Counted from the stretch's first letter, positions 17,101 through 62,921 are shown. The stretch: DNA of 64,000 bases from Eukaryota sp. GEM-RC1 (GCA_040285855.1 JAUFOQ010000017.1:1054001-1118000), one strand, 5' to 3'. The notes: a model not told the origin generated them from the sequence alone. A program made the numbers and translations.

Positions 17101-17560
17101 TAGTACACAAAACACCGGGCGTGTTTGAACACGGTGTTGAGTGTGAACGTGTTCTGAACGTGTTGTAAATTTCGTAAGGGTGGATGCGGTGTTTTTCGTT
17201 GTCGATTTTTTCGAGCTATTGAATGAAAATGGTCGCAAATATACGAAATCTTTGCTGCATAAAAGCTCGTGAGTACAAATAGGAACTCTCTGGATTCGGA
17301 GTTGATAGACTTTTGACTTATACTTCTCATGCACCTGAAATAATCGTGGCCATTAGTGATACGATGGTAAAGGCTGTGTTACACGAGTTCACATAGAATG
17401 GATGTATTCGATCACTGAAGGTCATACATTTTTAAAGAGATAATTGTATGAAGAGTTTTTGTGGTTGTGTGGCGGTGTTGTAGCGGTGTTCAACACGGTG
17501 TTGAGTGTGAACGTGTTCTGAACGTGTTGTCACTGGAAGAACACGTGTTTTAGTGTACTA
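17101..17560. mobile_element. TIR MITE, family B
   Basis: TIR TAGTACACAAAACAC / GTGTTTTAGTGTACTA; CGTGTT repeats; homolog at 33998-34883. No clear TSD. Confidence 0.75.
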
Positions 17561-34883: not shown

Positions 34884-35979
34884 GGCTTAAAATTTAAATA
34901 CAAAGAGATAATATTATCTTTCTTTTTAGTATTAAATTAGTAACAATAACAAACAATACAATACTTGATCAACTTCTTATGAGATCTATTATGTAATTTT
35001 GGTTGTTTCTAGATTTTAGTCAAATTTGGAATCTTCGGCATTTCTGAAAAGAATCTTCATTAAATGGGAATGGGAGTACCATAACATCATGGGACTTCCA
35101 AGTTTTGGGATCACAAGTGTATATGCAATTTGTTCCATTGGATGATCACTCGTGGTCTGACACATTGAAATAAATAGATCCGTTTTTTCTGTCAGTTTCA
35201 CTGGGAAATATACACTTGCCTACATTTAGAAGAAATATCGATAACAGTACATTTTTGTATGACGATGCCTTTATTTACCTGGAATACAACAGTGACACAT
35301 AAGTTGGTATTTTACAGGTTGACTGGGGTAGAAACCAAAACCTGATTAAACTACCGTAAGTTCAAGTTTGCTTACATTGAACAGCTCACACAACGTTTGT
35401 CATTCAAGTGACTTCAGCGACCAGGAAACCGTTTCAAAAAATCAAGTTACATGATAGTGAGTCTAATCTAAAAATCCAGAAGATCAACTCTTTTATTGTT
35501 GTTACACATGTCACATGCCATATTGCACCGAAAAAGGAAACCTGCCTCCTAAATAAGAAAGTGTAAAACAAAAAGTGATTCAAAGACTAAAATCAAACGA
35601 CTTCATGCCTATCCGGTAAAAGATTCCGTTTTTCAACATTAACCTTCACACCAAACTTGTACAGTTTCTCAACTAATCGAGAGAAATAGAAGGGCTTATT
35701 CCTATAAGTGGAAAACACGATACGGTTGTTCCATTGAAACGCTCACAACTTATGCTTCTTTTTTTACACAGATTTTCAAAATTGAACAACTGTTAGCTTT
35801 GCCATCATACTCCATGTATGAGATTGAGATAATTTGCTACATCTCTGAAAATGAAGTCCAATACAATGGCAATAAGTATCTACATGTGCAGGCCATAGAT
35901 TTTGTTTTGAACGAGCAAATTTTGTAATGACTAGGAAGGAGCATTTTCAAAATTAATTTTTGTCAATTCCTTTACTTTA

Positions 35980-41470: not shown

Positions 41471-42178
41471 TTTTCGATAAAGGGCACAAAAATACATATC
41501 ATGATAAAAGCTATGAAACACTAGACACCGAATGTTCCTGATCAACAGCACCACAGTTCTTATACAACTTTGTGAAAATTGATTTAAAAAACTTAGGCAT
41601 TGAACGGAACAACGAAAAAATGAAACGAGAAAAAAATTCAAAATAGGCGTTTCAACATTGTGATGTGTCTCTTTTTGGATCGATTAGTCCTGCAGGTGAT
41701 CAATTTGTTAAAGATTTCGAAGAACTGTGTAAACCAAAGAAGCGTAAGTTTAGAATGTCCGAATTTAAAAACCGTATTGTGCTTTCCAGACATGGAATAT
41801 GCCTTTCTATTTCTCTCGATTAGTTGAGAAATTGTACAAGTTTGGTGTGAAGTTTAATGATAAAAACCGTAATCCCTTACCGGACGAAGTCGTTTAATTG
41901 GATTAGTTTTAGTTTTAGTTTTAGTATTGTTTGTTTGTTTTTATCACAAGTTTTTATAAAGTCAATTCTTTTTACAATGCAGGAAGGTTACCTTTTTACA
42001 AGAATACACTTCGTCTTATTGATGTTTATGAAACTGAAGTATAGTTTTCGTATTTTGTAAAGTCAACACATCTACACTTGCCTGTATTTGACAGCAGCGT
42101 TCAACTTTTTTTTCTATTATAAGTTTCTGTTAGTATCATAGTGCTTGTAACAAAAATTTAACCTTCTGCTAGTGTTAC

Positions 42179-43561
42179 ATGGACCAAACCTCATCCATTT
42201 CAGAGTCTCCAGCAAGTACTTTAGACATCATTCTCACTGAACGATGTTTCTCTGACCAAATTCTTCTCTTCAGAGGTGTAACAATCCCAGTCAACACCTT
42301 TGTATTGGCAGCACATTCCAACTTCTTCAAACGTCTCTGGTTTGAAAGTCCATCTGTTCAGAAGAGTGAAAACCCCCTTGATATTTCCTCTCTCCCAGTA
42401 GATCTCACTTCCCTGTACCATGTTATCCACTACTTGTATGGAATTGCTGTCCCTTTCATGACACTAATAATTACCAACTTCTCTTTTTAGCCAGGTACTT
42501 TGAGATTCCTAACTTGATTTCCAGAATTTCATCACTTGTACCACTTTATTTCAAGGAATGGACACTTTTCCTCAAGTTCTTGGCAGAAGCAGATCAAAAC
42601 AATGATGAACCCGCCATTGAATTTGTTGGCCGTTATCTTTCGTCTGTTGATGAGATAGATTTAGACAACTTACCATCACTACGTAATCAAACTTTAATAT
42701 CACTTAATGAATGTTGTCAAACTAAGGCATCACAGTCTTGGTTCCTCAAAACAATGGTGAATTCTTATTTAAAGCAAAGAATCACCTTGGATCAATTTTC
42801 AAAACTTCTTCAAAATGCTTGTATTAATCTAGTTCCAACGTTAGATCTTGAGAAGTGTCTCGACGAACTTCAAGACTGCATTGAACTAAAACCAGTCTTG
42901 AGCGAATTTCATTTTTCAAAGATACGACCGCTAAATATTCAGCGATTACAATCCTTGCCAAATTCTCAGTCGTCTTTAGTTCGAGAACAACAGGCGATCC
43001 CCAGGGAAACACGTCAGAACAGTACAATTGTACCACCTCCAGTCAAAAAAAGCAAAAATAGAGGAGTCTGATAGTATAGATTCTAGTTCAATTCTGTTTT
43101 CAAATGTGTTCAACCATGCAGAATTACTGATTTCTGATGATCAAAAGAGACTTACTTTTAATGGCACTAGTGGCCAGAAGTATTGTCAAGGTAACAGGCT
43201 CTTGCTACCAGGAGTTGTGTACAAGTGGGTGATTACTTTTCATTGTTCCACTCTCTCTGGAATAGCTATCGGAGTTATACCAAGATCAAAGTTATCTTTA
43301 GCTCGCGGTACTCCGTTGAAGAATTCTTATTCTGTATCTGCTCAAAAGAGAGCTTATGGTCTTGTCGGAGATTGTGTACAAATTACCAAAAACGAAGTGC
43401 TGGAAGTAATTGCTGATATGATTGAAGTAAAGCTCACCATACGATCACTTGGTAGATCAGCGATTAATCTGTCTGGGCCACTACCAAATTTAAAATCTGG
43501 CGACTCATATGTTCCTTTTTTTAGACTCTGTGCTCAAGGACAATGCTTGTCTCTTTCTTAA
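42179..43561 (+). CDS. BTB-SPRY(B30.2-like) protein, paralog A (insertion-free allele); frameshifted
   Basis: BTB motif SDQILLFRGVTIPVNTFVLAAHSNFF; SPRY-like GVVYKWVITF...IAIGVI...YVPFFRL. Confidence 0.8.
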
Positions 43562-45068
43562 GTAAATAATACTACATTTAGTAAATAACCCTTGTTGAAC
43601 AGTACTTCTCGTTTCTCAATAAGTGTTTCAGTTAGTGGTCTTGTTAAATGATATCACGACTACTAGACGTTATAGTTGCCTTTAGTAGAATGTTCGGTGT
43701 AATATGATAACAGAGTGATCAAATCCACAATTGATTACACACCTCCACGTGTTACACGAACTGTGACACGACAACACAACAGTTTGCGTGTTCCATGTTT
43801 AGAATTGTTTACGTGTGTGGTTTTCAGGGAAAACCGAATCATTCTTGGATGCTTTGTCTCATTCAATTATGAGAGATAAAAGTACAGGTGATTTGATTGG
43901 CTCCTGGTTGTTGAAGTAAGATTTAATTTTAGATTGTACTGCAATTGATTATTCACTTCATTTTTTGTTGCCAAAATGTGGAGGGAAAATTATTCAGTTC
44001 TTGAAACAGCCGATCTGAAACAATTAATTCGGTATATGTATTGACTTAATTACCGAGATGGATTCTCATCAACACAATCTTTTGTTTGTTTGTGTATTTT
44101 ATGGTATTTCACTTAACAGAATGTTAGCATTTTCATTTTTGAAGAAACATCTCTCACTTATTTTTTAAAAATTGTGTAAACTATATGGACAAATTTCAAT
44201 GAAAGTTATTGTAGGGGAAGGTCCTCATTCTACCTTTTTCAATGTTCAGGTATTTTGATTCGATTGTAAACTGTTTCTTTCCATTGAAAAGTGAATATGA
44301 GATGATGTAGAGGTTTTGATATCTCCTTTGTTACTATCGATGGTCTTCTTTGTTTGTAGTTGGAAATTAATGGCTTTTTGGAGACTCCGTTTCACTTCTT
44401 TTTCTTTATATTTCACTGAAAACGTGTTCCTTTTGTTCTACATGTACTCTAGACGGTATTCAAAAGTGGTTATAATAATAGCTCCACAAAAATTATCCAA
44501 TGTACTCTAGGCTTTTGAGCTAATTGAATTAGTGAACTCAGTCAAAATTTTATGTTCAGCTCAACTAATTCGTTTACCCTCTGTAAAAATTTTTAAGTTC
44601 CACAGATCATGCCGTCAAATGATGAACACCCCAGCCTATCACTGTGAAATGTTTCACTTTTATAATAGCATATAGTATTAAGTATTTGTAAACGTAATAT
44701 ACGAAACACATATGACTGTAACTTGTACTTAAAAAATATCAAATGATCTTCATCTACTCCTATATTTTTGAAGGATTTTGAAGAACTTTGTAAAGAATAG
44801 AAGCGTAAGATTAAAATGTCTGAATGGATTCAATGCGTTTTCCATTTATCGAAATACGCCTTTCTATTTCTATCGATTAGTGGTGAAAGATTTTCTGTAC
44901 AAGTTTGGTGTGGATTTCGAAAAGGTAATCTTTACGAGATATGGATGATTTCGTTTAGCTGGATTAGTTTTAGACTTGGTATTATGTGTTTGTTTGTTTT
45001 AATTCATTTCTTTTCTAGGAATGTTACTTTTTGGACCGAATAAGCTTTCTTATTGATGTTTATGAAAC

Positions 45069-46191
45069 CAATCGATTTCCTCATGATATTTCACTTATTA
45101 ACCCCAATTCATGTAAATATTTAATTGACTTAAACGAAGCGTTAATCAAATTACCTTTTGATGTTTGGTCTCAATGTTTCCCAGAATCTTTTTCTGAAAT
45201 ACCTGAAAGATGTTTGACTAATCTTCAGTTCTGTCTGACAAAATTACAACAAAAACTCACAAATATTTTTGAAAGCTTGGATTATAATGTTCGACTTGGT
45301 ATGGCCAAGAAAAAAATCACACTTTGCAAATTTCTTAATGGATGTTCCTAATAGCTCTGCTTCATGTCTGATCACTCAAATCCCTCAAGTTTACGGTCAT
45401 TTTCTTGATGATAACTGTTGGTCATTAAACATGCGTTTACGGTCATATATTTGGCCTGATAACCTTCCACATATTTTGAAATGCCAATGTAGGCAATGTG
45501 TAACACCTACACATTTATTGAATTGTAACCGTTTTATTTCTTATAGAAGTAAGGTTCATGATTCAGTAAGGGATCAACTATATTGTATGTGTAAATCTTA
45601 TGGAATAGTTTCCGTTTTAGAACCAGTTCTGGCTGGTTTGTTTGATGATACGGATGTTATCAAATCGTTTGGAAACAGCCGTGGTGATGTCATATTTCCT
45701 GGTCTTGATGGATCTTTCATTTATGCTGATGTTATGTCTATCGATGCTTGTAATGATTCCAACAAGAAACTTACTACATCTAATACTAAAAACCCCCCTG
45801 TTGATTGGTGAAAGTTTTTAAATGGAAAAATATTGTGATAAACTGAAATTATTGAATTCAGTTTCACACTCGCATTACTTCTTGTACTCTTTTGTATTTT
45901 CACTGTACGGTTATTTAGGTGAATCTGCAATATCATTACTGGAAATCTTTGTGAAGATTGTAAACGAAAAAACATCTAGGACATTTGATCTTAGATTTTG
46001 GAAAAATTGAATTGTGTTTGCTATCTTTAAAGGTATGGTGACTTCTATATCTAGCGCTCTATTATCTCTTGGCAGACATTATGAAGATAATGTAGGTGAG
46101 AATTTCCAGATAGGCAATCTGGACTTTGAGGATATTGATTATTAGATGTATGTAAACTATAGTGTTGTTGTCAATAAAAACCACGAAAAAA
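45069..46191 (+). mobile_element. 5'-truncated RLE-type (CRE/R2-like) non-LTR retrotransposon
   Basis: CCHC knuckle CQC..HLLNC, VHD, RGD..YADV and KY endonuclease motifs; AATAAA plus A-rich tail; 13-bp TSD ATGTTTATGAAAC (45056-45068, 46192-46204). The empty site is visible at ~42022-42034. Confidence 0.88.
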
Positions 46192-47819
46192 ATGTTTATG
46201 AAACTGAAGTATAGTTTTTGTATTTTGTAAAATCAACACACCTAAATTGCTTGTATTTAACAGCTGTGCTATTCCCTATCCATAATCAACACCTAGACTT
46301 AATACTAATGTAGAATATTAACATGGCTCCCAATCGAATCACAAGTACCCTTTCTACGTTGTATTGATTCTTTTGGATTCACCTGTTACGCCTTCACTGT
46401 GTAGACTACACATGAGCCGTTTTTCACTCAACTGTTATTTTAAGTTTCCATTAGTAGTGCTTTTTTTGTTGTACAGTAACAAAAATTTCAATAATCTTCT
46501 ACTACTAGTAGTAGTTAATCTCAAATGCAAAATTAGAAAAATCAAGTAAAAGACACACTAAAAAGTGTAAGAAACGTTTCTTGTTTATTCCAATACATGA
46601 CGGTCTCTTTGGTACAACAGCCACTCACTGGTCACTGTTAATCTGTGATATTGAAAACAAACAATACTTCTCTATTGACTCAATGTGTACAGAAGATCAA
46701 CAATCTCAGTTTTCTAACACTTTATCACGTATTGACAATGTCATTTCACAATTACAGCAATTCCTGTTTGATATGGCAAACTTCAGCTATATAGCTAGAC
46801 GACCAGTTCAACAAGTCCAAACTCTCAATGATTGTGGTCTATTTATTCTAATGTATATGAATAAATTTGTCGAGTGTGAATCAACATCAACAAATCTTTT
46901 CGAAATTCTGTCTAAAGTCTCTAATTGTGTTGCTTATAATGCATTAGAAATGAGAAAACAAATACTGTCTCAAATCGTTACTACTCACCCTGATGAAGAT
47001 CATCCTGAGGAATACCGACAATATGTATGTACTCATGCCCAAGGTATTTTAAATGAGTTTTATTCTGATGAGATTGAATCACCTGTTAATCAACCTGTAC
47101 AGTGTCAATCTGAAAGTTTAACTCCTGAAACAATCGTAGATGATAGTAGTTACAAGGAAACGGTGTCAAAGCTCACTTATCAACACTTTCTCATAAGTTT
47201 ACCTGGAAATTTATCTAACCGGAAAAGAAGCGTCTTTTGAAGTTAAAAATGATTGAACAAGCGCTGGAAGAAGCTAAAGAATTATTTCAAGAAAGTTATC
47301 ATAACTTTAGTCGTCCAGAGTTGACAGATCTTCCAGAAATAAATTTACCAACTCCAATAATAAATGTTGCTGCTTGTGAGAAACCTGATACAACAGAAAC
47401 AACAGAAACAATTGAATCATCTGACACCACTGAAACAACAACAGCAACAGGAAATAGAAACACAACAGTTGCCAAAAGGAAAACCACCAAACCAAAAGCA
47501 AGTGGAGTATCAAATGCGACAAAGAGTTTGAAACCTCCTAAAAAACCAATGATTGAGTTTCTCAAACATTCCCAATTACCAAATAACTCTAATCATTGTT
47601 CAATATTGTCTTTTGATATTGAAACTAGAGAAATTGATCAAATCCCTGCAGAAACACTTACAGAGGAGTTGGATGATCAAAGAAAGAACGAGAATGAATC
47701 TCTCAAAATGAAAAGTGATGCAGAAAAAGAAGTGTGGATTCAAAACCAACAAGTTTTTATGATTTCTGGAGTGTTTGGTCATTTTATAAAAGATCAATTT
47801 TACCTTCAAGACAATTTTG
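45270..47819 (+). repeat. ~2.55-kb direct repeat, copy 1 (copy 2 at 56267-58817)
   Basis: The copies appear essentially identical apart from homopolymer lengths, and ORF translations match. Confidence 0.95.
46520..47819 (+). pseudogene. Truncated duplicate of the Ulp1-exonuclease-Fanzor element (Ulp1 plus Exo I only)
   Basis: Identical to 57518-58817; breaks after ...QFYLQDNF. Confidence 0.85.
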
Positions 47820-48249
47820 GCAAACTGTTCGGAATATTGAATCACTTATTTATTGGAAAAGAAGGTGGAATTAAAAAATTCTGTTACTGTTGATTTTTAA
47901 ATAGATGAGAATTGTTGTAGGTACTCCCAATTCTACCCTTATATATACCAAAACAAAGGACGAGAACAGAGGAAGAAAGGAAGTAGGACATCTTTGGCGT
48001 AATTTGGTGTTGATTGTGTCTCAATAACACATACGACTCTTTGTACAAAATCTTCAGAAGGAAAATGTGTGAAGAGAAGAAAAGATTAGTGTTGGGTTCC
48101 AAATGTGAAGCCAAAGACTATATAATGTTAGAGTGTTTATTGTACATCGAGATCGATCGATGTACGGTCGATAGAGACGGAAAGATCGATCGACAAATGT
48201 TTCGAAGCGAAAATTTGGCACTAAACCGAGGGAAGACTGTAGTATGGAT

Positions 48250-48868
48250 CAGGGATTGGAAAAAATATATTTATATTTATTGTGTACCAACAATATTTAT
48301 TGACAATAAGAGATCTTGAACAATATGGTATTGTTATTGTGAACAATAAATATATATATATATTGACAATGTATTGCAATATTTGAAAACACATAAAAGA
48401 AGCAGTTTATTTGAATCTGAGTAGATTCTTTACCTTCTAGTATCTTTATCACCCCTGGTTCGAAATCAGGAGACTGCCAGATAGTGGACAAACGCGGCAA
48501 CAATAGGCAACATAATGTCATTTGTCTACTGGAGGTTCTGGTTGGGGCGTGATTTTCAAAAAGATGCGTTTTGCTATCTCTTTGCCGTGTACATATTTGT
48601 AGAAGAAATTATTCTTTTATTGTAGCTTATATATTCCACTGCATGGTCTTTGTTCATTTCCTTCCTCGTAAGAAAGCGATTTATGTTCAATTTTACAATG
48701 TATTCTCCCACAACGATTCGAAAAAACACTGGTGTACCAACTTTTACACTAACAATAACACATCAATATATTGCAATATATTGTTATTGTACATGTACCA
48801 ACAATAACATATTGTTATTGCACTTATTGCAATATATTACAATAGCAATAAATTTTTTCCAACCCCTG
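48250..48868. mobile_element. hAT-type MITE related to 4626-5541
   Basis: TIR CAGGGATTGGAAAAAAT / ATTTTTTCCAACCCCTG; 8-bp TSD GTATGGAT (48242-48249, 48869-48876); ATATTG/CAATA repeats. Confidence 0.9.
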
Positions 48869-50117
48869 GTATGGATCCCTTTATTGTTTACATCATCATA
48901 TCTGTTGTTATACAAACCTTAGTTGACACTACTAAGACTTCAAAAATGATTATAAATGAAAGCTTCTTCTGATTTGTTACAATTTCTGGACATTAATAAC
49001 CACCTTCTCTTAATTCAAAGTTTGAACTTCAAACTGCAACTGGAACTTCGCAGCTTCTTGAGTGATAAACGACAAAGAATCGATGTTATGTCTTATGAAC
49101 TATAAGTTGTCTTCGTCGATTTTTTCATTTGATTATCTAATACATTCTCGTGCTACTTTCCTACAGCGTTTCTCAAAGTTTATCTACTGTTTAGATACCA
49201 AAGATTGCAACTAATATATGGACGGTCTCTACTAAATATATTAGAACAATTCACATTATGTCCAGATTCCCATTATGTCCTGCCTGATAGGTGGACATAA
49301 TGAGAGGGTAGACTGTATATCACTCCTTAATTCCTTCCCTACACGTAAACATCGAACGTTTTTATAGAATTAAGACATATAACACTCAACTCCAGAATAA
49401 TTTCTATAAAAGTGAGATTTTAGAAATGTGCCAAAATAAGAAATAGTCTGGATCAGACTATTTCTAGATCAGACTAATTCTTTATCCAGACTATTTAAAA
49501 CATATATATATGATACAGTTAATTCATTGAGGTATTTTTCAGGGGTTAAAGCATTGGAATTAAAATTGACAATAATCAAACAAGTAGCATATCCAAATCT
49601 TGAAAGGTTGCGGATTGTTGATAATGATTTGACTGTTTTATTTCATTGTAAATCCATAATTGCAATTGAATCAAAGATACATCAAATACCATACATCGTA
49701 TAAAATATACAAATAGAGTCAATAAAAAATACAACTGATGATATAAATAATGATACTCATTCATTAATAATCTCGATAGACAAGTGATTAATGGTAAAAA
49801 ATGATTATTCATATAAAGTATAACTTTATTACATTATGAGCTCTGCTCCAGTTTGTCCTCCTACTCCCCGCGCTGTACGACCAGTAAGGTTATACGATGT
49901 ATTGGGTCCTTCCGCTCCTCTAATTTTCCCTGGGGGAAATGATATCAATGCTATGGAAGAAGAAGATTCAGGGTATATCACGCCCACTTATTTAGATTCG
50001 GACGGTACTGGAATTTGCCCAGGTGTTCCTCGTAGATAATAATAAATCCTTAATTTTATAGTGTTGTTTTCATTTTTTTAGTATTATTTTTATAACATTT
50101 CATTTGACAATTATTAA

Positions 50118-50513
50118 ATGAACACATCCGAGAACGAAACATCTCCATTGATAAATAAATCAGGAAAAGAGAAAGAAAATTTATACAGTCAAGGCATTAA
50201 GGTATTCTTCAAGGGATTATCTGCATTGACTGCAGATGATTTTGAACATCATATTAGACCAATCGCAGAGGAGTTGCTGATTGTGATTAGAGCGTTGAAC
50301 CATAAGAAACAGCCAAACGTTTTCTACTCAGACCTTAGAACCAAGATACGCAAACAGCCGGGTGGTAAATGCGCAACAGGAAAATTTATGTCAAGTGCTC
50401 CATGCTCCAGAGTCTTATATGTGTTAGTTCCTCTTTTCGGAATTGACATTCTGTGTGGACGCAGGATCAGAGATAGAACTGAATATACTATGGTCAAAAT
50501 TGATAAAACCTAG
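50118..50513 (+). CDS. Hypothetical protein
   Basis: 131-aa ATG ORF with protein-like composition; no family recognised. Confidence 0.35.
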   Translation: MNTSENETSPLINKSGKEKENLYSQGIKVFFKGLSALTADDFEHHIRPIAEELLIVIRALNHKKQPNVFYSDLRTKIRKQPGGKCATGKFMSSAPCSRVLYVLVPLFGIDILCGRRIRDRTEYTMVKIDKT

Positions 50514-50761
50514 TTCTGAACCCTCTTCTCTTCTTCCTTGGTCGCTAAAGCACATCATCGGATCACTGGACATTTAATAATAGTATTGACCTTATTATAG
50601 ATATTAGAAGAGCTGCATGTACAATGTTTGAAAGTCACTATTAAACATCTTGCAATGTGACTCTATGTCATCAAATGTAGATTTACGTTCAGTTTCAGTA
50701 CTTGAATTAAATAAATTCTTTTAGAAAACTGCTCCTTCTGATTCTCCTTCTCTTTTCTCAC

Positions 50762-50870
50762 TGTTGAATATGCCAAGGAGCTCTGCCAAGGTGTAAGTTA
50801 TCCCCATAGTAAGTCAATTGTCCATGGAGATCTCAAACCAGGAAATGTGTTGATTGTTGATGATAGATTT
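50762..50870 (+). pseudogene. Protein kinase catalytic-loop fragment
   Basis: Translates as VEYAKELCQGVSYPHSKSIVHGDLKPGNVLIVDD. Confidence 0.7.
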
Positions 50871-53629
50871 GTTGTTGTTCTTCAGCTATACAAGATATAC
50901 ACTATGATCCCAGAGTTGAATATAAGTACTGTCCAATTGTCCTCAATGTCCATTAATTGTTTACTTGGGTACCAAGTGATCAAGACAATTACCTTGATTA
51001 TTGGAATTTTGTACACCAAGAATAGCTAAAATTATCTGACTACAATCTGAAAAACAGTAATTTTTGAATAATATGAAATTCTGAGTAGTGAAAATTCCTT
51101 CCTCCACTGAATAGAACTACATATATTATAATAACAGATAAAATTAAATATAAAATAGGAACCACATGAATTAAAAAGATTGAAAGAAGAACTAATTGAA
51201 CATTGTTAATTTTCCTTCAACAAAGAGATCAGTTCAACTAGTTTCACCAGTCTTAACTCTCAGCCACTCAAAGAAGAACAAATCACGTCATCTTCTGTTG
51301 AAACACGCGTGTTGCTGCCCTGGTTATTATAGATCTTAACGTAAGTCTGAAACCTTTATCTACTGATTCAATGATGACGTGATCATGGGGTTATTACTAT
51401 CACTGAAAGCAACGAGAGAAATAGAGAAGATTTGGTAGCAAGTATAGATGACGACGTTTGCAAAAGATCATAAAACACGTCATCTTTTGACCCTAGAGAA
51501 GTTCTTGATGGTCGTTGATAATGAAAGACAGAAGAAAAAAGACATTGAAGTGAGACAGGGTGAAGATCAACAGACTCTCAAGAAGGATAGGTAGGATACC
51601 CAAGGAAAGTAACAGTCTTACTTTCACAAATACTAGCAAAGATCGATGACGTGTCATTTGGATTTGATGACGTGTCACATAGGGTACTGGGTAACCACAT
51701 TCACCACCAGTGAGTAGAAGCCAATAGTAAGTATTGAGAAGTAGACGAGATCTAGTCTTGGAAGAGAGAAAAAAGTAGAAGTTGGAGTGAAGAACTAGAG
51801 AGATGAAAAGATGGTAGGATTAAGAAAACTTCTGATCTTTTGGGGAGTGTTAGTATTTCTTAGTGTTTCTGAGAGATTGTGTAGGAGAAGTGAAGTGGTA
51901 TTTAGCTTCAACGTTTGAGGAAGAGCGATCGAACTGGCTTGTGATCTGAACGGCAGTACGGTGTATCAAGTCACCCATCTCCTTCTCATTCAAGGATCTG
52001 GTTGGAGGAAAAGAATGACGTGATTTCCCTCTCTTTGAGGGGGGAGGGGGAGTGGGAGGGCGATCGACGCGATGATCATAGGTAAGTAAAGCTCGAAAAT
52101 AAGCAGGATTGGAACAGCACAAGCTCTGTCGGCAGAGAGAGCATGTAGTTGATACAGTAGTGAAAACTAAGGGAATCAACAAGTTATTTGAACAACGGGC
52201 TTGTTTAGAACTCGAGGGCGCTTTGAGGAAGGACTATTGACGGTAGTGATGTTGGAAGTTAGCCTAATCTCAATTCAAGCTCTGACTCATCATCTATTTC
52301 TTCAAACATATCAAAGACATACAACAATGCAAAGGCGATCTGCCTCGTTCCCTCTCCTTAGAGTGTTCTAGTCAATAAGTCTTCTTCTTAATACACTCCA
52401 GGTTTTCGTCTTTTGATCAAATCAATTGAGTTCTAGACGTATTGCTTCTTGCATTGGCCTTCTTCTTTTCTCTGAACTATCTTTACTATTGTAATGTGCT
52501 TCGTCGGGAACTTCTTCTTTGTGTGTGTCCTCTGGTGGTTTGTTGTTTGCATCAGCATTTTTCTTCGCCTTTACTCTTTTATTATTTTATTTGAACTAGT
52601 GTTTATACATGACTTGATTCCAATCAATGTTGAAAGACGATTTTCACCATTAAGTTTTTTCGTAAAGCATTTTAATCCGTACATTCTTTGTATTGTATCA
52701 CTTTGTCTCACGAATGGTTGTTTGTGTATTTTAGGCACTTTATCAGATAGAATTTTGGAGTGACACTTATGAACACCTTTTACATTGATTTGACTTCGTT
52801 CACGTCATCTCGTTGAGATCAAATATACTACCATTGTGCCTTAATGACAAAGTGTGTTACAGAACGTGGAGTGTTTGTCATAAGTAACTTTGATATCGTC
52901 AGAGAGTCAGTTGTTGTGACTCCTCCAGATTGCTACAAACATTTACAGTTGACATTGTTCAGTGCTACCAATGTAAGAGCTCTGGATTTTACCCAATTCA
53001 CCGTAACTTGTTCTAAACGGGATCGTTTGTCCAATATCTCATCATACAAGGATTACTCAAGGTCAGTGCTCAAAGGCTTACGTCCTGCACCAGATACCCG
53101 AAAGGAAGAAGGGTCTGACCTCATGATATTAATCTTATCAGCCTGCCAGTCTTTCAACTGGAGGTGATTCAGATTGCGGTACTGAGAAAGAACAGCAGCT
53201 TTGCATTTCGTTTCCATTTCGGTGAGGATATTTTGTTTAAAGCCGATGGTGATTTGGGCTCGAGTACGGTTTAATTGGGGGTGAGGTTGTAGAGGGATTG
53301 GTAAACCCAATTGGTTACGATGAGATCCAGGAGCCATAGTCAATACAGGGGAGGAGTATTTTGACTTTATGCTCATTAATAGTCATATAATAATAAATAG
53401 TATATATCGTTTTTATTTAATGTTTGATGTGAATACGTCAAATAATAAGTTATTTTCAGAAACGGGCTCTATTCGGTAAGGCTAACAGTGAGAAATTGTC
53501 CATATAGAGTTGACAGGACTGAGAAGAAGATAACAAGATCTGATGATGCTTTGTGTTAGAAGACATACGAAAGTATGGAGTGAAATTAAGATGATTTATG
53601 ATTGCTCTATTAGCTATTATACATCTACA

Positions 53630-54360
53630 CTACTTCTTCTCCTTCTTCGAGCCAACGCTTCTTCGAGTTCTCTTTGCTATATGTGTTTTACTAGGTTTAG
53701 CTTTGGATGAGGTTCTCTTTCTGGGACTCGAGGGAGGATTATTATTATTTTTCATAAACTCGACATAGGCTTTAGTATTTTTAATGCTAGAAGAAGCAAC
53801 TGTCGTGATATCACCGCCATACAGAACAGAACACATAAGTCCTTCATGTGAGTGGACCTGTTCCAACACTTGGATGATGACATGTTCTTCCTTATCACCT
53901 GATGCGACTTGTTGATGTATACCATGGTTAGATGGAAGGTTGGAGTTGTACAGCTCATATTGATGTACGCTGGCTTGGGAATCGACGCCAGATACAAGGT
54001 TCTTGATTTTCAAGGATGATGTTGAAGGGATCACGATGACCAGGAATGAGCCAGAGTGTTTGCCATGAAGCTTTGTAGCAGTCTTAGAGGATCTGAGGAT
54101 CAGATCGCCAATTTCAAAGGGATTTGATTTATTGGACTTAGGGGGTCTCTTTGACAATTGGTTGCTACTTGCTGATTCCTGCTTTTCCTTGATTCTCTCG
54201 TTTTTTCTTTGAAGATCTTCAATAAAAGGGATGCTTAAATTGGATGCTTCTAGAGCTTTGATTATGAGACTGGGATCTGCTTTAGGACCAAAAGAGGACC
54301 CAAACATGAGTTCGTAGGGAGTGTGTTCGGTGTAACGGTTCTTGGTAGCGTTAAGCTGGA
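53630..54360 (-). mobile_element. Ty3/gypsy integrase C-terminal fragment
   Basis: LNATKNRYTEHTPYELMFG, FEIGDLIL and KLHGKHSGSFLV (GPF/Y-like), followed by a chromo-like segment. Confidence 0.75.
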
Positions 54361-55990
54361 GTCTTTATAAATTTATCAAACGAACCAGAATTGTGAAAAT
54401 ATTAGTTCTTTTGAAGCGGCTGATATGTTCTCGTTTCTTCCAATAACTGTTTAATGATTGTATATAGCTTTCAATACATCCACATGAGGGTACTTCAATA
54501 TGAATATGGCATTAATGACCAAAATAAGGTCATTGGCAGTAGATATTGAACGTGATTTCCTTTTGTGCGAAGCTATCAAGTGGATGAGAAATAAAAAGGT
54601 GTCGCTGTTTTTGGTGTCGCAAAGATTTCTTTTTGCCAATAATTGAATAAAAGTAATGTTAATTTAGAAAAGATGAATAAGCTAGATGGTAAAACAACAA
54701 CAACAGTTTAAATTACTGAGAATACCTTACGGTAACGTAAGGTAAAGAATAATATTATTCTTGTTTGACTGTAGTGAGTTTACTATAATCTTGACAGAAA
54801 TCCTTCAAATACTACAGTAATGTCCATTTCCTTGAATGATTGCTCCTCTTCCATTGTTTTTGGTGAAGGGAAGAAGATTGTGAAATCTTGTCTTATAGAA
54901 CCTAGACATGTATCTGATCTTCTGATTCTATCTACTCCATCGATCTGGGTATTCACCTCTCTCACGTTACTTCTCGCCTCATAACTACCATCTCTGCTAT
55001 GAGTTCTACAATCCTTACAATCTCATCCTGCTCACTTATCAAATTGCTATGGATTACTTGGAGGAGTTATCATTCTCCACGATTCCAGTCTCAACGCGTC
55101 TTCTTCTTTCATCCATCATACTAGTGATGATACACTCTATGCTTTCTATTTCCAAAAGTCATCTGCCTCTGTTCATAACATCACTTATCACATCACTTCT
55201 ACTGACTATGGTGACCTCTTCTATGTGTGTTTCTCCCCTTTCTACGGCTCCTTCATCAACTCTTCCTACAGTCACACCACGCATGGTGATGTCGATTTCC
55301 TTGTCAAATATACTCTGCTCTTTGCTTTTGCTCAATTCCAGTTTCTCCTCTTTGATGCTGATTATATTCGATGTTTTTGGTCTTACACACTACATTATCC
55401 GTGTGTCTGATGTTTACCAGAGTACCATTGAGTTCTTCTAAGAAAACTACCAAATTAACTTATCTCAAAGAGTGTTTGCTGACGTTATCAACACGTGTCA
55501 GTAACACGTGTTTTCTACCTTTGGTCAGCTACTTCCCCGTATTACTCTGATGATGTGTATATTGTTAATCTCAGAATCATCTATACCAATTAGATTGATC
55601 ATGATCTCTTCTTGTTTCCATTTGACTTGTTTCAACGATGTTTTGAGTGATCACATCATCACACGTGTTTTGGGCGTGTTTAATTTTCGTTGTCTGCTTT
55701 TTTAATTTTTATTGGTGGAATAATCTGGTACCGTATCACACGTGTTTTTGATGGCTCTTTTTAGTATCACGTCACAATGTTTTGTACCCGGTTTAAAAAC
55801 ATGTTCTGGACCAGTTGGTGTCTTTACAGTCTAAGGTTTACATGGTCATCTTCTTTATGTAGTTCTATTCAGTGGAGAAAGAAATTTTCCACACTGAGAA
55901 TTTCACTATTTCACGAATTTCCATACATCATTCATATTTAGTTTTTTTATTTAGATTATTTTTAGTTCAGTTCGATTTAGCAAAAATCTC

Positions 55991-56266
55991 CTAGATCAGC
56001 GTTTGTATATCGTTGGAGTTTTGATATACGGGCCAGAGTTCCAGCCATATTGGGACAATTTCAAGGTTGGAGAGGATGGCTTTGACTATAGCTTTGTCAG
56101 ACAAGGCATCCATAGTTTTGTCGTTGTCTAGAAGAATTGCTTGTGTTCTCTGGAAAACGCGATGTAATCGTTTGATGAAATCGCCCCATCGTTCCTCTGG
56201 GTCGTTGATTGGCCAGTTCATTTTGACTTTGTTTAGCTCATTGAGCGCAAGAGTATGTAAACTGTG
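55991..56266 (-). mobile_element. Probable retrotransposon gag fragment
   Basis: Helical ORF fragment (MNWPINDPEERWGDFIKRL) co-oriented with the gypsy integrase remnant; the assignment is weak. Confidence 0.35.
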
Positions 56267-58817
56267 TGAAAGCTTGGATTATAATGTTCGACTTGGTATG
56301 GCCAAGAAAAAAAATCACACTTTGCAAATTTCTTAATGGATGTTCCTAATAGCTCTGCTTCATGTCTGATCACTCAAATCCCTCAAGTTTACGGTCATTT
56401 TCTTGATGATAACTGTTGGTCATTAAACATGCGTTTACGGTCATATATTTGGCCTGATAACCTTCCACATATTTTGAAATGCCAATGTAGGCAATGTGTA
56501 ACACCTACACATTTATTGAATTGTAACCGTTTTATTTCTTATAGAAGTAAGGTTCATGATTCAGTAAGGGATCAACTATATTGTATGTGTAAATCTTATG
56601 GAATAGTTTCCGTTTTAGAACCAGTTCTGGCTGGTTTGTTTGATGATACGGATGTTATCAAATCGTTTGGAAACAGCCGTGGTGATGTCATATTTCCTGG
56701 TCTTGATGGATCTTTCATTTATGCTGATGTTATGTCTATCGATGCTTGTAATGATTCCAACAAGAAACTTACTACATCTAATACTAAAAACCCCCTGTTG
56801 ATTGGTGAAAGTTTTTAAATGGAAAAATATTGTGATAAACTGAAATTATTGAATTCAGTTTCACACTCGCATTACTTCTTGTACTCTTTTGTATTTTCAC
56901 TGTACGGTTATTTAGGTGAATCTGCAATATCATTACTGGAAATCTTTGTGAAGATTGTAAACGAAAAAACATCTAGGACATTTGATCTTAGATTTTGGAA
57001 AAATTGAATTGTGTTTGCTATCTTTAAAGGTATGGTGACTTCTATATCTAGCGCTCTATTATCTCTTGGCAGACATTATGAAGATAATGTAGGTGAGAAT
57101 TTCCAGATAGGCAATCTGGACTTTGAGGATATTGATTATTAGATGTATGTAAACTATAGTGTTGTTGTCAATAAAAACCACGAAAAAAATGTTTATGAAA
57201 CTGAAGTATAGTTTTTGTATTTTGTAAAATCAACACACCTAAATTGCTTGTATTTAACAGCTGTGCTATTCCCTATCCATAATCAACACCTAGACTTAAT
57301 ACTAATGTAGAATATTAACATGGCTCCCAATCGAATCACAAGTACCCTTTCTACGTTGTATTGATTCTTTTTGGATTCACCTGTTACGCCTTCACTGTGT
57401 AGACTACACATGAGCCGTTTTTCACTCAACTGTTATTTTAAGTTTCCATTAGTAGTGCTTTTTTTGTTGTACAGTAACAAAAATTTCAATAATCTTCTAC
57501 TACTAGTAGTAGTTAATCTCAAATGCAAAATTAGAAAAATCAAGTAAAAGACACACTAAAAAGTGTAAGAAACGTTTCTTGTTTATTCCAATACATGACG
57601 GTCTCTTTGGTACAACAGCCACTCACTGGTCACTGTTAATCTGTGATATTGAAAACAAACAATACTTCTCTATTGACTCAATGTGTACAGAAGATCAACA
57701 ATCTCAGTTTTCTAACACTTTATCACGTATTGACAATGTCATTTCACAATTACAGCAATTCCTGTTTGATATGGCAAACTTCAGCTATATAGCTAGACGA
57801 CCAGTTCAACAAGTCCAAACTCTCAATGATTGTGGTCTATTTATTCTAATGTATATGAATAAATTTGTCGAGTGTGAATCAACATCAACAAATCTTTTCG
57901 AAATTCTGTCTAAAGTCTCTAATTGTGTTGCTTATAATGCATTAGAAATGAGAAAACAAATACTGTCTCAAATCGTTACTACTCACCCTGATGAAGATCA
58001 TCCTGAGGAATACCGACAATATGTATGTACTCATGCCCAAGGTATTTTAAATGAGTTTTATTCTGATGAGATTGAATCACCTGTTAATCAACCTGTACAG
58101 TGTCAATCTGAAAGTTTAACTCCTGAAACAATCGTAGATGATAGTAGTTACAAGGAAACGGTGTCAAAGCTCACTTATCAACACTTTCTCATAAGTTTAC
58201 CTGGAAATTTATCTAACCGGAAAAGAAGCGTCTTTTGAAGTTAAAAATGATTGAACAAGCGCTGGAAGAAGCTAAAGAATTATTTCAAGAAAGTTATCAT
58301 AACTTTAGTCGTCCAGAGTTGACAGATCTTCCAGAAATAAATTTACCAACTCCAATAATAAATGTTGCTGCTTGTGAGAAACCTGATACAACAGAAACAA
58401 CAGAAACAATTGAATCATCTGACACCACTGAAACAACAACAGCAACAGGAAATAGAAACACAACAGTTGCCAAAAGGAAAACCACCAAACCAAAAGCAAG
58501 TGGAGTATCAAATGCGACAAAGAGTTTGAAACCTCCTAAAAAACCAATGATTGAGTTTCTCAAACATTCCCAATTACCAAATAACTCTAATCATTGTTCA
58601 ATATTGTCTTTTGATATTGAAACTAGAGAAATTGATCAAATCCCTGCAGAAACACTTACAGAGGAGTTGGATGATCAAAGAAAGAACGAGAATGAATCTC
58701 TCAAAATGAAAAGTGATGCAGAAAAAGAAGTGTGGATTCAAAACCAACAAGTTTTTATGATTTCTGGAGTGTTTGGTCATTTTATAAAAGATCAATTTTA
58801 CCTTCAAGACAATTTTG
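56267..58817 (+). repeat. ~2.55-kb direct repeat, copy 2 (non-LTR 3' part, host promoter region, 5' part of the Fanzor element)
   Basis: Matches 45270-47819. Confidence 0.95.
57523..58238 (+). CDS. Ulp1/SENP-like (C48) cysteine protease domain, N-terminal part of the polyprotein
   Basis: FLFIPI...THWSLLICD...FSIDSM...QVQTLNDCGLFILMY: His, Asp, Gln and Cys catalytic residues are present. The start at ATG 57523 requires one extra A. Confidence 0.85.
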
Positions 58818-59335
58818 TTGCAACTTTAGAGTTGACTCATGAATCTGATGTTGAACTGCCACCTGATTGTAGAAACCTTCGAATTTTTGAAAACGAAAAA
58901 CAGTTACTAGAGTTTTTTGTCAACTATTTGAATGATAAAAATCCCTCAGTTTTAACTGGATTTAACATAACTGACTTCGATAATGTTGTTTTAGGCAACA
59001 GGATTGTTACACTTGGAGTCGACTTTCCAGAACCAATGATAGATGAAACAACTAAATCTCATTTTATCATCTCTATGGCAAAATGTTTGTTCTGAATGGA
59101 CTGGTAGAATTGTCTGTGATTCATACGTTTATGATAAGCAATTTATTGTTTCAAAATGTTCAAAGTCTTTAAGATCATTAAATTGGTTTTTATTAAACGA
59201 ATCTAAAGGACGTCTTCATGACGAATTTCACCACTTATTGCCTATTGATTGTGTTGTTGAAAGACCTCAAGAAGTTCTAAACTATTGCTTCAAAGATAGT
59301 GTAATAGCATTGAAGTTGTTTTTATTGTTTCAATC
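58595..59335 (+). CDS. Family-B DNA polymerase-type 3'-5' (DEDDy) exonuclease domain, middle of the polyprotein
   Basis: Exo I SILSFDIET, FENEKQLLEFF, Exo II LTGFNITDFD, GRIVCDSY and Exo III NYCFKDS; one frameshift near 59070. No polymerase palm motifs follow. Confidence 0.88.
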
Positions 59336-59349
59336 AAATAAAATCGTTC

Positions 59350-61468
59350 GTCCAACTTTTGTAACACATAAAACTACTCTAAAGTCTATTGTCAAACATT
59401 TTGGATTAACGTTACTACTCGATTATTATGCTCAATTGGTTCACAAACTTAGAATGCACACTTCCTATTGTTTGAAGCTGTTTTTATTACACATGGATAA
59501 GAATGGTGAAAAATTACCTTTAATTACAAGGAAAGAAGTAGAACATATTCAAACTCTGTTAAGAAACATCTCTGCTGAACATCATGAGATTGAATTATTT
59601 AATCGAGGACGACCTCCTAAATTTAATGAACACTTGAAAAACTTTGTTTCAGAAGAATACAAACAAGTAATGCTCAACAATGGAGGAACTCCACTCTTTC
59701 CAGCTGCTCATTCCTCACGGCTTATGGCAATGGTTGGTGAAACTATTAAATCGAATTTGGACACAAATATTAAAATGCGATATGCTCAATACATTGACAA
59801 ATTTATTAATGTTTATTTTCAAAAGACTGATCAAGAAGAAAAAATGTCAAAAAAAGAACAGTCTGTTTTTCGTTGGAGACTTAGACAAGTTAAAAATGTC
59901 TTTCTTGAAGGTAACAGAAATGACATTCCAAAAACCCCTGCAGAAATAAAACAATTTATTCCAAGATGTAATACAGAAATTCTTCAAGACGACAGTAATA
60001 GAAGTTTGAACATTGCAGGTAAAATTAAACTTCTATGGGCAACTAATGACTATGTTGAAGGATTGTTTAGAGATAAATATTTTATTGATGTTCTCTTCCC
60101 ACCATCAATTGATGTTCAAAATGCTAATGGTGTTTATAAAAAGAAAGTCGTTAAATCTCTACTAAAATCAGTTCGTGAACATCCCCAGTCCTTTATTAAA
60201 TCTGCGATTCAAATAAATAACTATCTTGAATGTGAAGGAGCAAGTGCTTACAATGTAATTCCTATTGTTCGTCACGTCACACCAGGTTTCTTTGAAATAG
60301 ACACACAAGGTCTTTGAGGAATATTACGTTCCACTTTGTCAACAAAACAAGTGAATGTCAAGAAGAAAATGTCTGATTGGAATACACAAACTGAAATTCA
60401 AAAATGTCTCCTGCTGAACAAAATCAATTCTGGTCCTACTTTTTCCCAACTTTAATCGTCCATTTATAAAGAAAGGTTATAAGTTTAACAATACCATTTA
60501 AACTGATGGTTTCTCTGCTTGTGTTGAACTTACCAGAGAGGACTGTGTGGGAATGTCCTTTAAACCAGACAGTGTAAAGTTCTCCAGTAAAGAAGAATAT
60601 GTTCAAGACTATGATGTTGAAGAGTTTTCATTGAAAACAAAAGTTTTTATTGATCCTGGAAAAACAGATTTACTCTATTTTTGTTCAGAGAAAGTAAATA
60701 GGCCATTTCCTGAACAAAAAGCCCGAGAAAGAAGAGACAAAGAAGACGAGTGGCTAAGATTGACAGAGACAGAATGGTCCAGATGGTCAAGGGTTCATCA
60801 AAAGTTTGGAAGGGGAAAGAAAAAAGAATTCATTCTCCAAGATGGAAAAACAGTTGAACAAGAAGAGTCAACATTATCCAAAGAAAATTCAAAATCGACT
60901 CTTTATGACACGTTCTATGACTATGTGAGTTCCAAACTTACAGTTATTGAATCAACATTTGATTACTACTGTTTGATGATATGGCGCATTCAAAAATGCA
61001 AAGATACGTCCATATTCAAAGAACAGAAAGTAAGTTGTTGAAAAATATGACTGCAAAAGGATGGAATAAAAATGACTGTGTATTGATGTTTGGTGACAAT
61101 GGTAATAAGACGCAGAACCTAAAACACCTCCGACCAAGTAGAGGTGTGATGTGGAGAAACTTCTTTAAGAGAAATGGTTTTAACATAGTTCTTGTAGACG
61201 AGAGTTACACGTCTTCAAAGTGTCCTACTTGTTGGAAGCCAGTTAAAGTGTTCAAAGAAATCAGTAATCCAAAACCATGGAAAGAGAGAAGAAACCTCTG
61301 GTAAAGTGTCACGCTTTGTTGAGATGCAAGTCCCAAGAATGTAGAGAAGAATGTCATGGTAGCGCCAAGATTTGGAATCGTAACAAGTTAGCATGTATCA
61401 ACATCAAGACCATTGTGGAGCATCATTTGGAGCGGGGTCTAGGAGTTAGACCCAGTTATTTGTCATAG
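59350..61468 (+). pseudogene. Fanzor1 (eukaryotic TnpB homolog), C-terminal part of the polyprotein; disrupted in this copy
   Basis: KTTLKSIV...LKLFLL N-terminus, GYKFNNTI*TDGFS, RuvC-I FIDPGKTDL, MFGD plus relocated Glu in VDESYTSSKCPTC, HALLRC...C, RuvC-III WNRNKLACINI and terminal RPSYL. Stops at 60315 and 60499 plus several frameshifts. Confidence 0.9.
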
Positions 61469-61557
61469 TCATAGTCATAGTCATAGTCTTAATTTACTAC
61501 AGTGAATCTGTAGCATTGTTGAATCTTCGGAATTCATGAACCAATCCTCTACAATAT
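61469..61557 (+). ncRNA. Candidate Fanzor omegaRNA (scaffold to ~61537, flank-derived guide after it)
   Basis: Lies between the Fanzor stop and the right junction; hairpin CTACAG-tgaat-CTGTAG, hairpin TGAATC-TTCG-G(A)ATTCA, ending TTCA(T). Expression is not shown. Confidence 0.55.
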
Positions 61558-62921
61558 CTGGGTCTCCAGCAAGTACTTTAGACATCATTCTCAATAAACC
61601 AGGTTTCTCTGACCAAATTCTTCTATTCAAAGGTTCAGATATCCCAGTCAACACCTTTGTATTGGCAGTACATTCCAACTTCTTCCACCGTCTCTGGTTT
61701 GAAAGTCCATCTGTTGAGAAGAGAGAAAATCCCTTCGATCTTTCATACCTTGACGTAGATCTCACTTCCCTTTCTCATGTTATCCACTACTTGTATGGAA
61801 TCGGTGTCCCTTTTGTGAAGCTAACATCTATCAACTTCTCTTTCTAGCCAAGTACTTTGAGATTCCAAACTTGATTTCCAGAATATCATCACTTGTACCT
61901 CTTTCTTTCAAGGAATGGCCACTTTTCCTCAAGTTTTTGGCAGAAGCCGATGAAAACAATGATGAATCCGCCATTGAATTTGTTGGCCGTTATCTTTCTT
62001 CTCTTGCTGAGATAGATTTGGACAAGTTACCATCACTACGTAATCAAACTTTAATATCACTTAATGAATGTTGTAAATCCAAGGCATCACAGTCTTGGTT
62101 CCTCAAAACAATGGTGAATTCTTATTTAAAGCAAAGAATCAGTTTAGATCAAATTTCAAAACTTCTTCAAAATGCATGTATTAATTTAATTCCAACGTTA
62201 GATCTTGAGAATTGTCTCGACGAACTTCAGGATTACACTGAACTAAAACCAATCTTGAGCGAATTTCATTTTTCAAGGATAAGACCGCTGATTATTCAGC
62301 GATTACAATCCTGCCAAATTCTCAGTCGTCTTTAGTTCGAGAACGACAGGCGATCCCCAGGGAAACACATGAGAACAGTACAATTGTACCACCTCCAGTC
62401 AAAAAAAGCAAAAGTAGCGGAGTCTGACAGTACAGATTCTAGTTCAATTTTGTTTTCACATAAGTTCCACCATTTAGAATTACAGATTTCTGAAGATCAA
62501 AAGAAACTCCTGTTTACTGGCACTAATCGCCCAAAGTTTTGCCAAGGTAACAAACCCTTGTTACCAGGAGTTGTGTACAAGTGGGTGATTACTTTTCGTT
62601 GTTCAAATACCTCTCGACTCACTATTGGAGTTGTTCCAAGATCAAAGTTTACTTCTAATACTGGTAGTGTTCCGTTGAAGGATTCCTTTTCTATTTCTGC
62701 CCCAAGGAAAACTTATGGCGGTCTTACCGGAGTTTGTGCACAAATGAAAAAAACGAAGTGCTGGAGGTTATTGCAGATATGATTGAACTAAAGCTCACCA
62801 TACGATCACTTGGTAGGTCAAAGATTAAACTGTCAGGATCACTACCACAGTTAAATTCTGGCGACTCGTATGTTCCTTTTTTAGACTCTCTGCTGTAGGA
62901 CAATGTTTGTCTCTTTCTTAA
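61536..62921 (+). CDS. BTB-SPRY protein, paralog B; frameshifted
   Basis: Colinear homolog of 42179-43561. Confidence 0.8.

Follow-up and report, generated by a model that had tools for sequence, protein, structure and literature searches.

What role could a Fanzor1 nuclease play at the end of a polyprotein that also carries a protease and an exonuclease? The question is raised by an insertion in a 64,000-nucleotide (nt) stretch of DNA from Eukaryota sp. GEM-RC1 (GCA_040285855.1, JAUFOQ010000017.1:1054001-1118000; hereafter the window, with positions counted from its first letter). The plus strand at 57513-61468 consists of six reading frames in succession, and their domain order, as proposed in an initial annotation and confirmed here by Pfam and a Fanzor1 profile, is a Ulp1/C48 protease, a linker, a family-B 3'-5' exonuclease and a complete Fanzor1. 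Judged from the sequences of its relatives, the exonuclease-Fanzor1 fusion is real and lineage-wide, not a one-off chimera, and it is apparently an undescribed architecture built on a known nuclease family.

The Fanzor1 part (59349-61468, +) comprises WED, REC, RuvC and TNB domains and is interrupted by four frame breaks and two stops. A profile made from 60 of 94 stand-alone Fanzor1 proteins spans 59349-61492 and covers positions 11-645 of 676, with domain E-values of 5e-37 (the enlarged WED/REC N-half, 59349-60374), 5e-29, 1e-26 and 1e-10. IDPG lies at 60649, WNRNK at 61373 and the Cys pairs at 61221-61232 and 61325-61342, while VDESYTSSKCPTC at 61194 places a relocated Glu six residues ahead of the C4 zinc finger. 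A TnpB-like RuvC with Glu relocated ahead of the zinc finger is the reported definition of Fanzor1 (PMC13565253). The TNB zinc finger, in the fifth frame, reaches a Pfam E-value of 1.7e-4, which is under the cut-off. The identity, DPG motif, Glu and zinc finger of the initial call thus stand, and only the third RuvC residue needs correcting: it is Asn, not Asp, which gives a D-E-N triad (Asp 60652, Glu 61200, Asn 61382). This Asn prompted us to consider a nuclease-dead, TldR-like Fanzor, a candidate that was dropped. GtFz1, an active nuclease, has Asn at the same position, and in SpuFz1 the D606N change is reported to raise activity above that of the wild type (PMC11423790), so the triad need not mean a dead nuclease. 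Asn is the third RuvC residue across the whole exonuclease-Fanzor family: WNRN occurs in 29 retrieved proteins, nearly all of this family, and WNRD in 80.

The exonuclease (58598-59297, +; PF03104, E 6.9e-12, over the cut-off) is of the family-B DEDDy type and has one frame break, near 59040. All three motifs that had been described as intact are present, namely ExoI FDIET at 58610, ExoII GFNITDFD at 58958 and ExoIII YCFKD at 59283, so that the signatures DxE, NxxxF/YD and YxxxD are complete across the break. The Fanzor1 match begins 17 codons 3' of ExoIII in the same frame, and no scanned protein gave a DNA_pol_B match that would indicate polymerase palm, fingers or thumb. P0003, a relative of 940 amino acids (aa) containing exonuclease and Fanzor, matches SpuFz1 (8GKH, E 5e-24), PpFz1 (E 2e-20) and the yeast Pol delta exonuclease (E 3e-6) by sequence. 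The structural model of P0003 (pLDDT, the model's local confidence, 81; predicted template modelling score, pTM, 0.76) has as its top matches seven Fanzor1 structures, at template modelling (TM) scores of 0.63-0.80 by target length (0.80 for SpuFz1, 9CEU), followed by Cas12 and family-B polymerases. Its exonuclease part, modelled with moderate confidence (pLDDT about 40-87 by block), matches the folds of Pol epsilon, Pol delta and the herpes simplex virus and African swine fever virus polymerases; by PDB ranking it is of delta/herpes/epsilon type. PF03104, the Fanzor1 profile and the Fanzor1 folds thus returned the PolB exonuclease and TnpB/Fanzor-type nuclease that the initial annotation had expected of profile searches. 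Because ExoI-III are retained in six exonuclease subfamilies with mutual identities of 26-48%, the exonuclease activity appears to be under selection.

Relatives of the element come from three protist assemblies. TZLM3-RCL and GEM-RC are Skoliomonas, free-living soda-lake metamonads, described in a paper that nowhere mentions Fanzor in its available portion (PMC11316075). Our first homologue search returned three longer proteins, all from Eukaryota sp. TZLM3-RCL and 45-47% identical over the whole open reading frame (ORF). The family comprises 80 NCBI gene models, of which 57 lie on 13 TZLM3-RCL contigs, 16 belong to TZLM1-RC (presumably S. litria) and 7 to GEM-RC1; they are ab initio predictions, some of which represent parts of a single copy. 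Intact natural copies include KAL0213088.1 and KAL0227444.1. This distribution across three assemblies answers the multicopy check that had been suggested against a one-off chimera. All six exonuclease and RuvC motifs occur in one gene model in 10 of 32 exonuclease-bearing relatives, and three of these ten add Ulp1 and a 2A-like motif (P0001, 1846 aa; P0005, 1905 aa; P0012, 1571 aa), so that the single Ulp1-exonuclease-Fanzor1 polyprotein proposed earlier is found as one gene model in each. Fragments 71-88% identical to the window copy are also among the retrieved proteins. One further model, P0007 (RCL1_001071), joins a DEAH-type helicase to linker, exonuclease and Fanzor, probably because the element inserted within or next to a gene for a host helicase.

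An exhaustive HMMER search of 1.84 billion representatives matched 1103 proteins. Among the best 150 of these 1103, 144 lack the exonuclease (the longest has 798 aa), in agreement with the view that Fanzors usually stand alone, and the six that have it all come from TZLM3-RCL, TZLM1-RC and GEM-RC1. A phylogeny built with FastTree alone from 81 of 151 eligible sequences, after removal of 22 near-duplicates and with 70 outside sequences retained, places the Fanzor parts of ten relatives and the window copy in one clade with support 1.0, next to a sister group with support 0.14. None of 44 viral and 276 metagenome pattern matches was confirmed by tblastn as a related locus.

Against these relatives, the window copy shows six frame breaks, at about 58225, 59040, 60400, 60440, 60995 and 61280, and two in-frame stops, at 60315 and 60499; the single frameshift near 58217 of the initial annotation is therefore an undercount. 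The Ulp1 frame runs from 57513 to 58238, and the linker shares the frame 58217-59095 with ExoI/II. The Thr/Lys-rich linker itself (58217-58597, +; delimited by tblastn) starts with a basic-helical motif also found in relatives and matches P0001 764-957 and P0012 530-697; bases just 5' of its break match P0012 in register (14/1000 shuffles as good) and P0001 likewise (67/1000). ORF 59043-60317 contains only ExoIII and the WED/REC N-half of Fanzor, with ExoI/II one frame earlier and the RuvC motifs spread over three later frames. The claim that the exonuclease-Fanzor fusion does not depend on correcting indels thus holds from ExoIII to WED and fails for ExoI/II and RuvC; because these motifs lie in other frames, a functional exonuclease-Fanzor needs read-through of the breaks. 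By eye and not by formal test, each break interval contains a homopolymer run in which one base shifts the register (runs of at least four identical bases account for 390 of 3954 nt). Both neighbouring BTB paralogues are frame-broken two to three times per 1.4 kb, a density similar to that in the element, and other host frames in the window are 570-1037 codons long. For these reasons the breaks are likely uncorrected long-read errors in repeated DNA, with decay as the alternative. Introns were ruled out as their source, since the relatives are colinear across the breaks without missing residues.

The protease (57516-58226, +, with an acidic spacer at its end) matches PF02902 at E 4.2e-11, 43.5 bits against a cut-off of 20.7. 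All four residues of the predicted H-D-Q-C set are present (His 57624, Asp 57675, oxyanion Gln 57816, Cys 57831) in what proves to be an N-terminally clipped clan CE domain, covering only family profile positions 55-182 of 195. Because about 54 N-terminal profile positions are missing, the window copy is 5'-truncated; it also lacks the leader, any 2A and the N-terminal W-L-x-D substrate helix that full-length relatives have. PDB matches to this domain are weak (SENP8, E 0.033; SENP2, E 0.57), and TAL-effector matches to the same frame are an artefact of summed sub-threshold repeats (domain scores 1-2 bits). PF02902 exceeds its cut-off in the window, P0001 and P0005 and falls under it in P0184-type proteins and P0211 (E 0.001-0.02); the Ulp1 of P0012 goes undetected by Pfam, though H, N, Q and C are present. 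The sole outside match to the protease module of P0186 (E 2.9e-5) is P0213 (JGI, 807 aa), an MBD-Ulp1-GDSL esterase protein.

The 2A-like motif occurs in 9 of the 34 relatives tabulated whose models extend sufficiently upstream, and in four more. Its position varies: it precedes one or two Ulp1 domains in P0001, P0005, P0012 and P0184, lies between Ulp1 and linker in P0173 and P0176 (Ulp1 end, 2A, linker, exonuclease in the latter), and stands about 65 residues ahead of ExoI, with no Ulp1 between, in P0082, P0181 and P0182. P0001, P0005, P0173, P0176, P0184 and kin have the exact GD(V/I)ExNPGP. In P0012, P0082 and P0211 the key Glu is replaced by His, a change reported to lower activity in the 2As of long interspersed nuclear elements (LINEs; PMC3708506). 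The window contains no 2A motif in six frames, the position that it takes in P0176 being filled by an unrelated-looking acidic stretch. P0012 is 98% identical to P0186 in the exonuclease and 32% in Ulp1, and to P0211 it is 84% identical in Ulp1 and 27% in the exonuclease. Because the protease is absent in one subfamily (P0082, P0181, P0182) and exchanged among others, these comparisons identify exonuclease-Fanzor1 as the constant core, not the three-domain protein, and the protease as an optional module swapped between subfamilies. The initial annotation also offered the protease as a processor of the polyprotein. That role finds no support: a Gly-Gly site between protease and exonuclease is missing from the window copy and present in only one of seven relatives (a weak test; seven of eight were valid, P0012 being dropped with a mis-located motif), and in those relatives that encode separation, such as P0176, a 2A-like motif would bring it about.

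A paralogous BTB gene without insertion (42022-43627, +) serves as the equivalent of an empty site. The host BTB-domain gene (61536-62920, +; PF00651, E 5.9e-7) is frame-broken, 86% identical to 42178-43627 over 1456 nt, and parted by the insertion from its upstream region (57425-57515, +). The left flank at 57425-57502 and bases 42096-42177, which precede the uninterrupted paralogue, are collinear (score 56, 0/1000 shuffles); what likeness the right end of the element bears to that upstream region was dismissed as chance (352/1000 shuffles). Because that upstream region aligns with the left flank and not with the right end, the alignment places the element at about 57516-61534, between the BTB upstream region and the start codon, with the left junction uncertain within about 57503-57517. 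The limits first given, 57518-61535, differ from these by no more than about 15 nt at the left end and 1 nt at the right.

The left flank ends in GTTA, a candidate target-adjacent motif (TAM). On the other side, 66 nt separate the Fanzor1 stop codon (61466-61468, +) from the right flank. This 3' tail (61466-61534, +) consists of about four copies of (TAGTCA) followed by two small hairpins (61497-61513, and 61520-61536 with a UUCG loop), and by its position may be an omega-RNA scaffold. No Rfam family was found in it, and three sub-threshold Rfam snoRNA matches were set aside as chance. The first 15 nt of the right flank (61535-61549, +), which are the start of the BTB gene, would then be the guide. 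Their best other match in the window is 42178-42192 (13/15), directly after GTGTTA, and three unrelated window sites match with 3 mismatches. The junction is consistent with an AT-rich TAM and a flank-derived guide, as would in part be expected from paralogy alone. A second partial copy (45270-47819, +) comprises 1.25 kb of left flank, Ulp1, linker and ExoI before an abrupt end, and is 99.88% identical to 56267-58817 over 2552 nt, with 0 substitutions and 3 single-base gaps. Because the duplicated stretch includes 1.25 kb of flank it is not a separate insertion, and we dropped it as evidence of mobility.

How might such an element spread? The reading we favour, at a little under an even chance, is an RNA-guided homing cassette in which Fanzor1 cuts empty sites, the tethered exonuclease trims the ends and host repair copies the element. 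A coupling of guided cutting to end trimming is plausible. SpuFz1 is reported to cut 16-21 nt and GtFz1 14-17 nt beyond AT-rich TAMs (PMC10432273). Fanzor1 would cut an element-free copy of the target at such an offset, and because the donor has the element directly after the TAM, the TAM-side end at the empty site would bear a 3' tail unmatched in the donor. The tethered 3'-5' exonuclease would remove this tail, and host repair would copy the element into the trimmed site. Copying primed from the other end would start at the element's 3' end, and its early release would leave a 5'-truncated copy without a target-site duplication (TSD). First arrival at non-homologous sites would likely involve a helper in trans.

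The phage T4 td intron provides a precedent for the trimming step. Its homing endonuclease, I-TevI, cuts away from the insertion point. Homing is aided by the 3'-5' exonuclease of a family-B polymerase, DexA and 43Exo both being reported to contribute through this activity (PMC12153337, citing Huang et al. 1999). The T4 system is an analogy and not a member of the same group: it is protein-guided with the exonuclease in trans, whereas here guidance would be by RNA and the exonuclease is fused. TnpB-only homing without a transposase has been reported for IS605 on plasmids (PMC13565253). We also count in favour of homing the insertion at the start codon of a gene-family member, whose uninterrupted paralogue matches the flank and 13/15 of the candidate guide, and the lack of any transposase or reverse transcriptase (RT) domain by Pfam in 37 family proteins, a scan that a separate upstream gene would escape.

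Several observations weigh against homing. The omega-RNA, TAM and guide are all candidates read off a single junction, and in 4/4 windows folding of the 3' tail does not surpass that of shuffled sequence (z -0.95 to +0.75). The window copy, a truncated and frame-broken representative with six breaks, two stops and no 5' end, may be dead. Ab initio gene models can bridge frameshifts with false introns, and in P0007 a host helicase has evidently been joined on. Engineered fusions with a 3'-5' exonuclease produce deletions in preference to copying. Homing requires a homologous donor and alone fails to explain copies on 13 TZLM3-RCL contigs. A truncated 5' end is just as much to be expected after retrotransposition or one-ended Helitron transposition, as in CRe-1/2/3 (PMC3627910). 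We are more doubtful of a bolder version, in which a transposase-free, self-spreading element with a 2A polyprotein and a swappable deSUMOylase needs only guided homing and host repair to pass between alleles and between members of gene families.

Retrotransposition is one unlikely alternative. The element would be a non-autonomous retroelement whose mRNA is copied in trans by a host LINE RT through target priming, with Fanzor and exonuclease preparing or defending the target; 5'-truncated copies would follow, and modules would be swapped by template switching. The truncation inside Ulp1 with an intact 3' end, the short tandem repeat past the stop codon and the module exchange among relatives all fit. 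Ulp1 is also found in Utopia/NeSL-type LINEs, one Ulp1 module has its closest outside match in an MBD-Ulp1-GDSL protein, whose layout is LINE-ORF1-like, and nearby fragments look LINE-like by their motifs (Atlas gives only a lead to zf-RVT, at 0.83). In non-LTR (long terminal repeat) elements, 2A-like motifs at the N terminus are a typical feature (PMC3708506). The family thus resembles the non-LTR retrotransposons with 2A (Ingi/L1Tc, CR1, L2, Rex1) or Ulp1 (NeSL/Utopia), but no exonuclease-Fanzor family protein has an RT, an apurinic endonuclease (APE) or a restriction-like endonuclease. Nor is there a non-LTR terminal tail in the window copy, where the hexamer repeat is not terminal, and a 2026 review sees, in its available text, no evidence of Fanzor-encoding retrotransposons (PMC13565253).

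An equally improbable route is a DNA transposon, Helitron/Replitron-like or DDE, that is one-ended or non-autonomous and mobilised by a separate transposase; Fanzor homing would then be of the ordinary restorative kind, and exonuclease and protease would be captured accessories. Spread over 13 contigs requires some way to new sites, the 3' end has subterminal hairpins, and Helitron-like or other helpers have precedent (PMC3627910; PMC10288648). The Chlamydomonas CRe-1/2/3 and Mucor MCi-2 families are also 3'-anchored Fanzor1 elements with no recognisable terminal inverted repeat (TIR); CRe-1/2/3 often keep the 3' end intact while the 5' side is truncated, and 5' modules are exchanged in the MCi-2 and Sola2 families (PMC3627910). 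Those elements differ in having TSDs or Helitron ends and no fused enzymes in the report as available (Bao and Jurka 2013, PMC3627910), whereas in the family studied here the 5' modules are in-frame enzyme domains. In the window copy, which lacks its 5' end, neither a TIR (748/1000 shuffles as good) nor a TSD (905/1000) was found, and the 3' end, GGAATT(C), is not a CTRR end; no RepHel occurs in the window or the family proteins, and no gene model encodes a transposase. Exonuclease catalytic residues kept at about 30% identity are likewise unlike passive cargo.

Still less probable is that the exonuclease serves to make cuts irreparable, in empty alleles, competing elements or viral DNA, or to trim the 3' end of the guide RNA. 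The cut of SpuFz1 has 5' overhangs and recessed 3' ends (PMC10432273); a 3'-5' exonuclease would shorten the latter, blocking clean religation. The closest Fanzor clusters come from giant viruses of the Nucleocytoviricota, which the Fanzor part resembles (Atlas score 0.76, a lead only). Neither a guide array nor a viral target was seen, however; loss of ends alone yields the element no new copies, and family-B exonucleases act on DNA. An artefact or a one-off chimera of adjacent genes is very improbable: the six frame changes of the window copy, the predicted nature of the relatives and a possible misassembly behind the 2.55 kb duplicate speak for it, and against it stand an ExoIII-to-Fanzor junction that in the window lies within a single open frame and has colinear counterparts in three assemblies and six subfamilies, homopolymer runs in each break interval and BTB paralogues broken at similar density. 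The homing, retroelement, helper and end-erosion readings are partly compatible with one another, as a helper could seed new sites from which homing could spread copies.

Among known systems, the Fanzor1 proteins SpuFz1, PpFz1 and GtFz1 share the WED-REC-RuvC-TNB order, the Glu six residues ahead of the zinc finger and a short 3' region after the stop, and GtFz1 also shares the Asn at the third catalytic position; they differ in being stand-alone proteins of about 600-800 aa, whereas here Fanzor1 closes a polyprotein that can reach about 1,900 aa. In the gene sets of Polinton/Maverick elements and giant viruses a family-B polymerase is combined with a clan-CE protease, but the element and its flanks contain no polymerase catalytic domain, integrase, capsid or ATPase. 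As the initial annotation supposed, no description of the architecture was found in the literature searched: listings and abstract starts gave no natural Fanzor fused to an exonuclease or Ulp1, with Repbase and subscription journals outside the search. Papers on Fanzor with Ulp1 were unrelated by title, and those on fused Fanzor with exonuclease were, by title, editing reviews and engineering. Term searches of the available main texts of PMC3627910, PMC10711439, PMC10530073, PMC10691335 and PMC13565253 gave no natural exonuclease or protease fusion, the available main text of PMC10432273 has no 'fused' or 'fusion', and two 2A surveys, as far as accessible, mention no Fanzor or TnpB. Accessible supplements of PMC10530073, PMC10432273 and PMC10711439 gave no match, a search that figure content (Jiang fig. 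S1B, extra Fanzor domains) may escape. In its available portion, PMC6338049 treats DnaQ-like exonucleases solely as accessories of LTR elements.

Other repeats surround the locus. Fragments of 3' ends at 56267-57190 and 45060-46190 (+), 8770-9108 (-), 41700-41930, 44760-45070 and 35565-35782 look to us like restriction-endonuclease-type (CRE-like) non-LTR retrotransposons (zinc knuckle, RxD..D motifs); they have no Pfam match, and their Atlas neighbours are unnamed eukaryotic clusters at 0.96. In all three places the BTB upstream region has such a fragment directly beside it. The two direct repeats of 2.55 kb are separated by 8.4 kb of unique sequence (47820-56266), in which we presume a Gag-like frame (55991-56278, -) and an integrase-tail-like frame (53630-54364, -), both without Pfam support, and AT-rich low-complexity tracts (48240-48870) are shared with 4650-5540. 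The BTB paralogues at 61536-62920 and 42178-43561, 14% diverged, both lose the frame in the same run of T close to where the BTB domain ends, possibly through systematic sequencing error, a shared lesion or a programmed frameshift. The window further encodes a hAT transposase with a BED finger (29181-30674, +; PF14372, E 2.6e-8), with clusters of GAGTCGAGTCGA repeats on either side (28861 and 31149-31264), and a Dicer/RIG-I-like helicase in three frames with a dsRNA-binding-like tail (6042-8111, -; DEAD E 5e-19, Helicase_C 9e-11). Repeats at 16530-17560 and 34031-34883, 83-87% identical and in both orientations, include 258-nt inverted arms 17.6 kb apart and are possible non-autonomous transposons, and a 30-nt tandem repeat array occupies positions 1-170.

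For the part that Fanzors play in eukaryotic elements, an exonuclease kept across subfamilies of about 30% identity points to the step after the cut. The 2A-linked, exchangeable protease suggests counter-silencing modules carried as in viruses and LINEs. In nature, exonuclease-Fanzor1 corresponds to the nuclease-exonuclease fusions made by engineering, and its compact eukaryotic scaffold has the D-E-N triad reported to be more active. If the transposase-free reading is true, the element would amount to an RNA-guided gene drive occurring in nature and to an editor already equipped both to cut and to trim.

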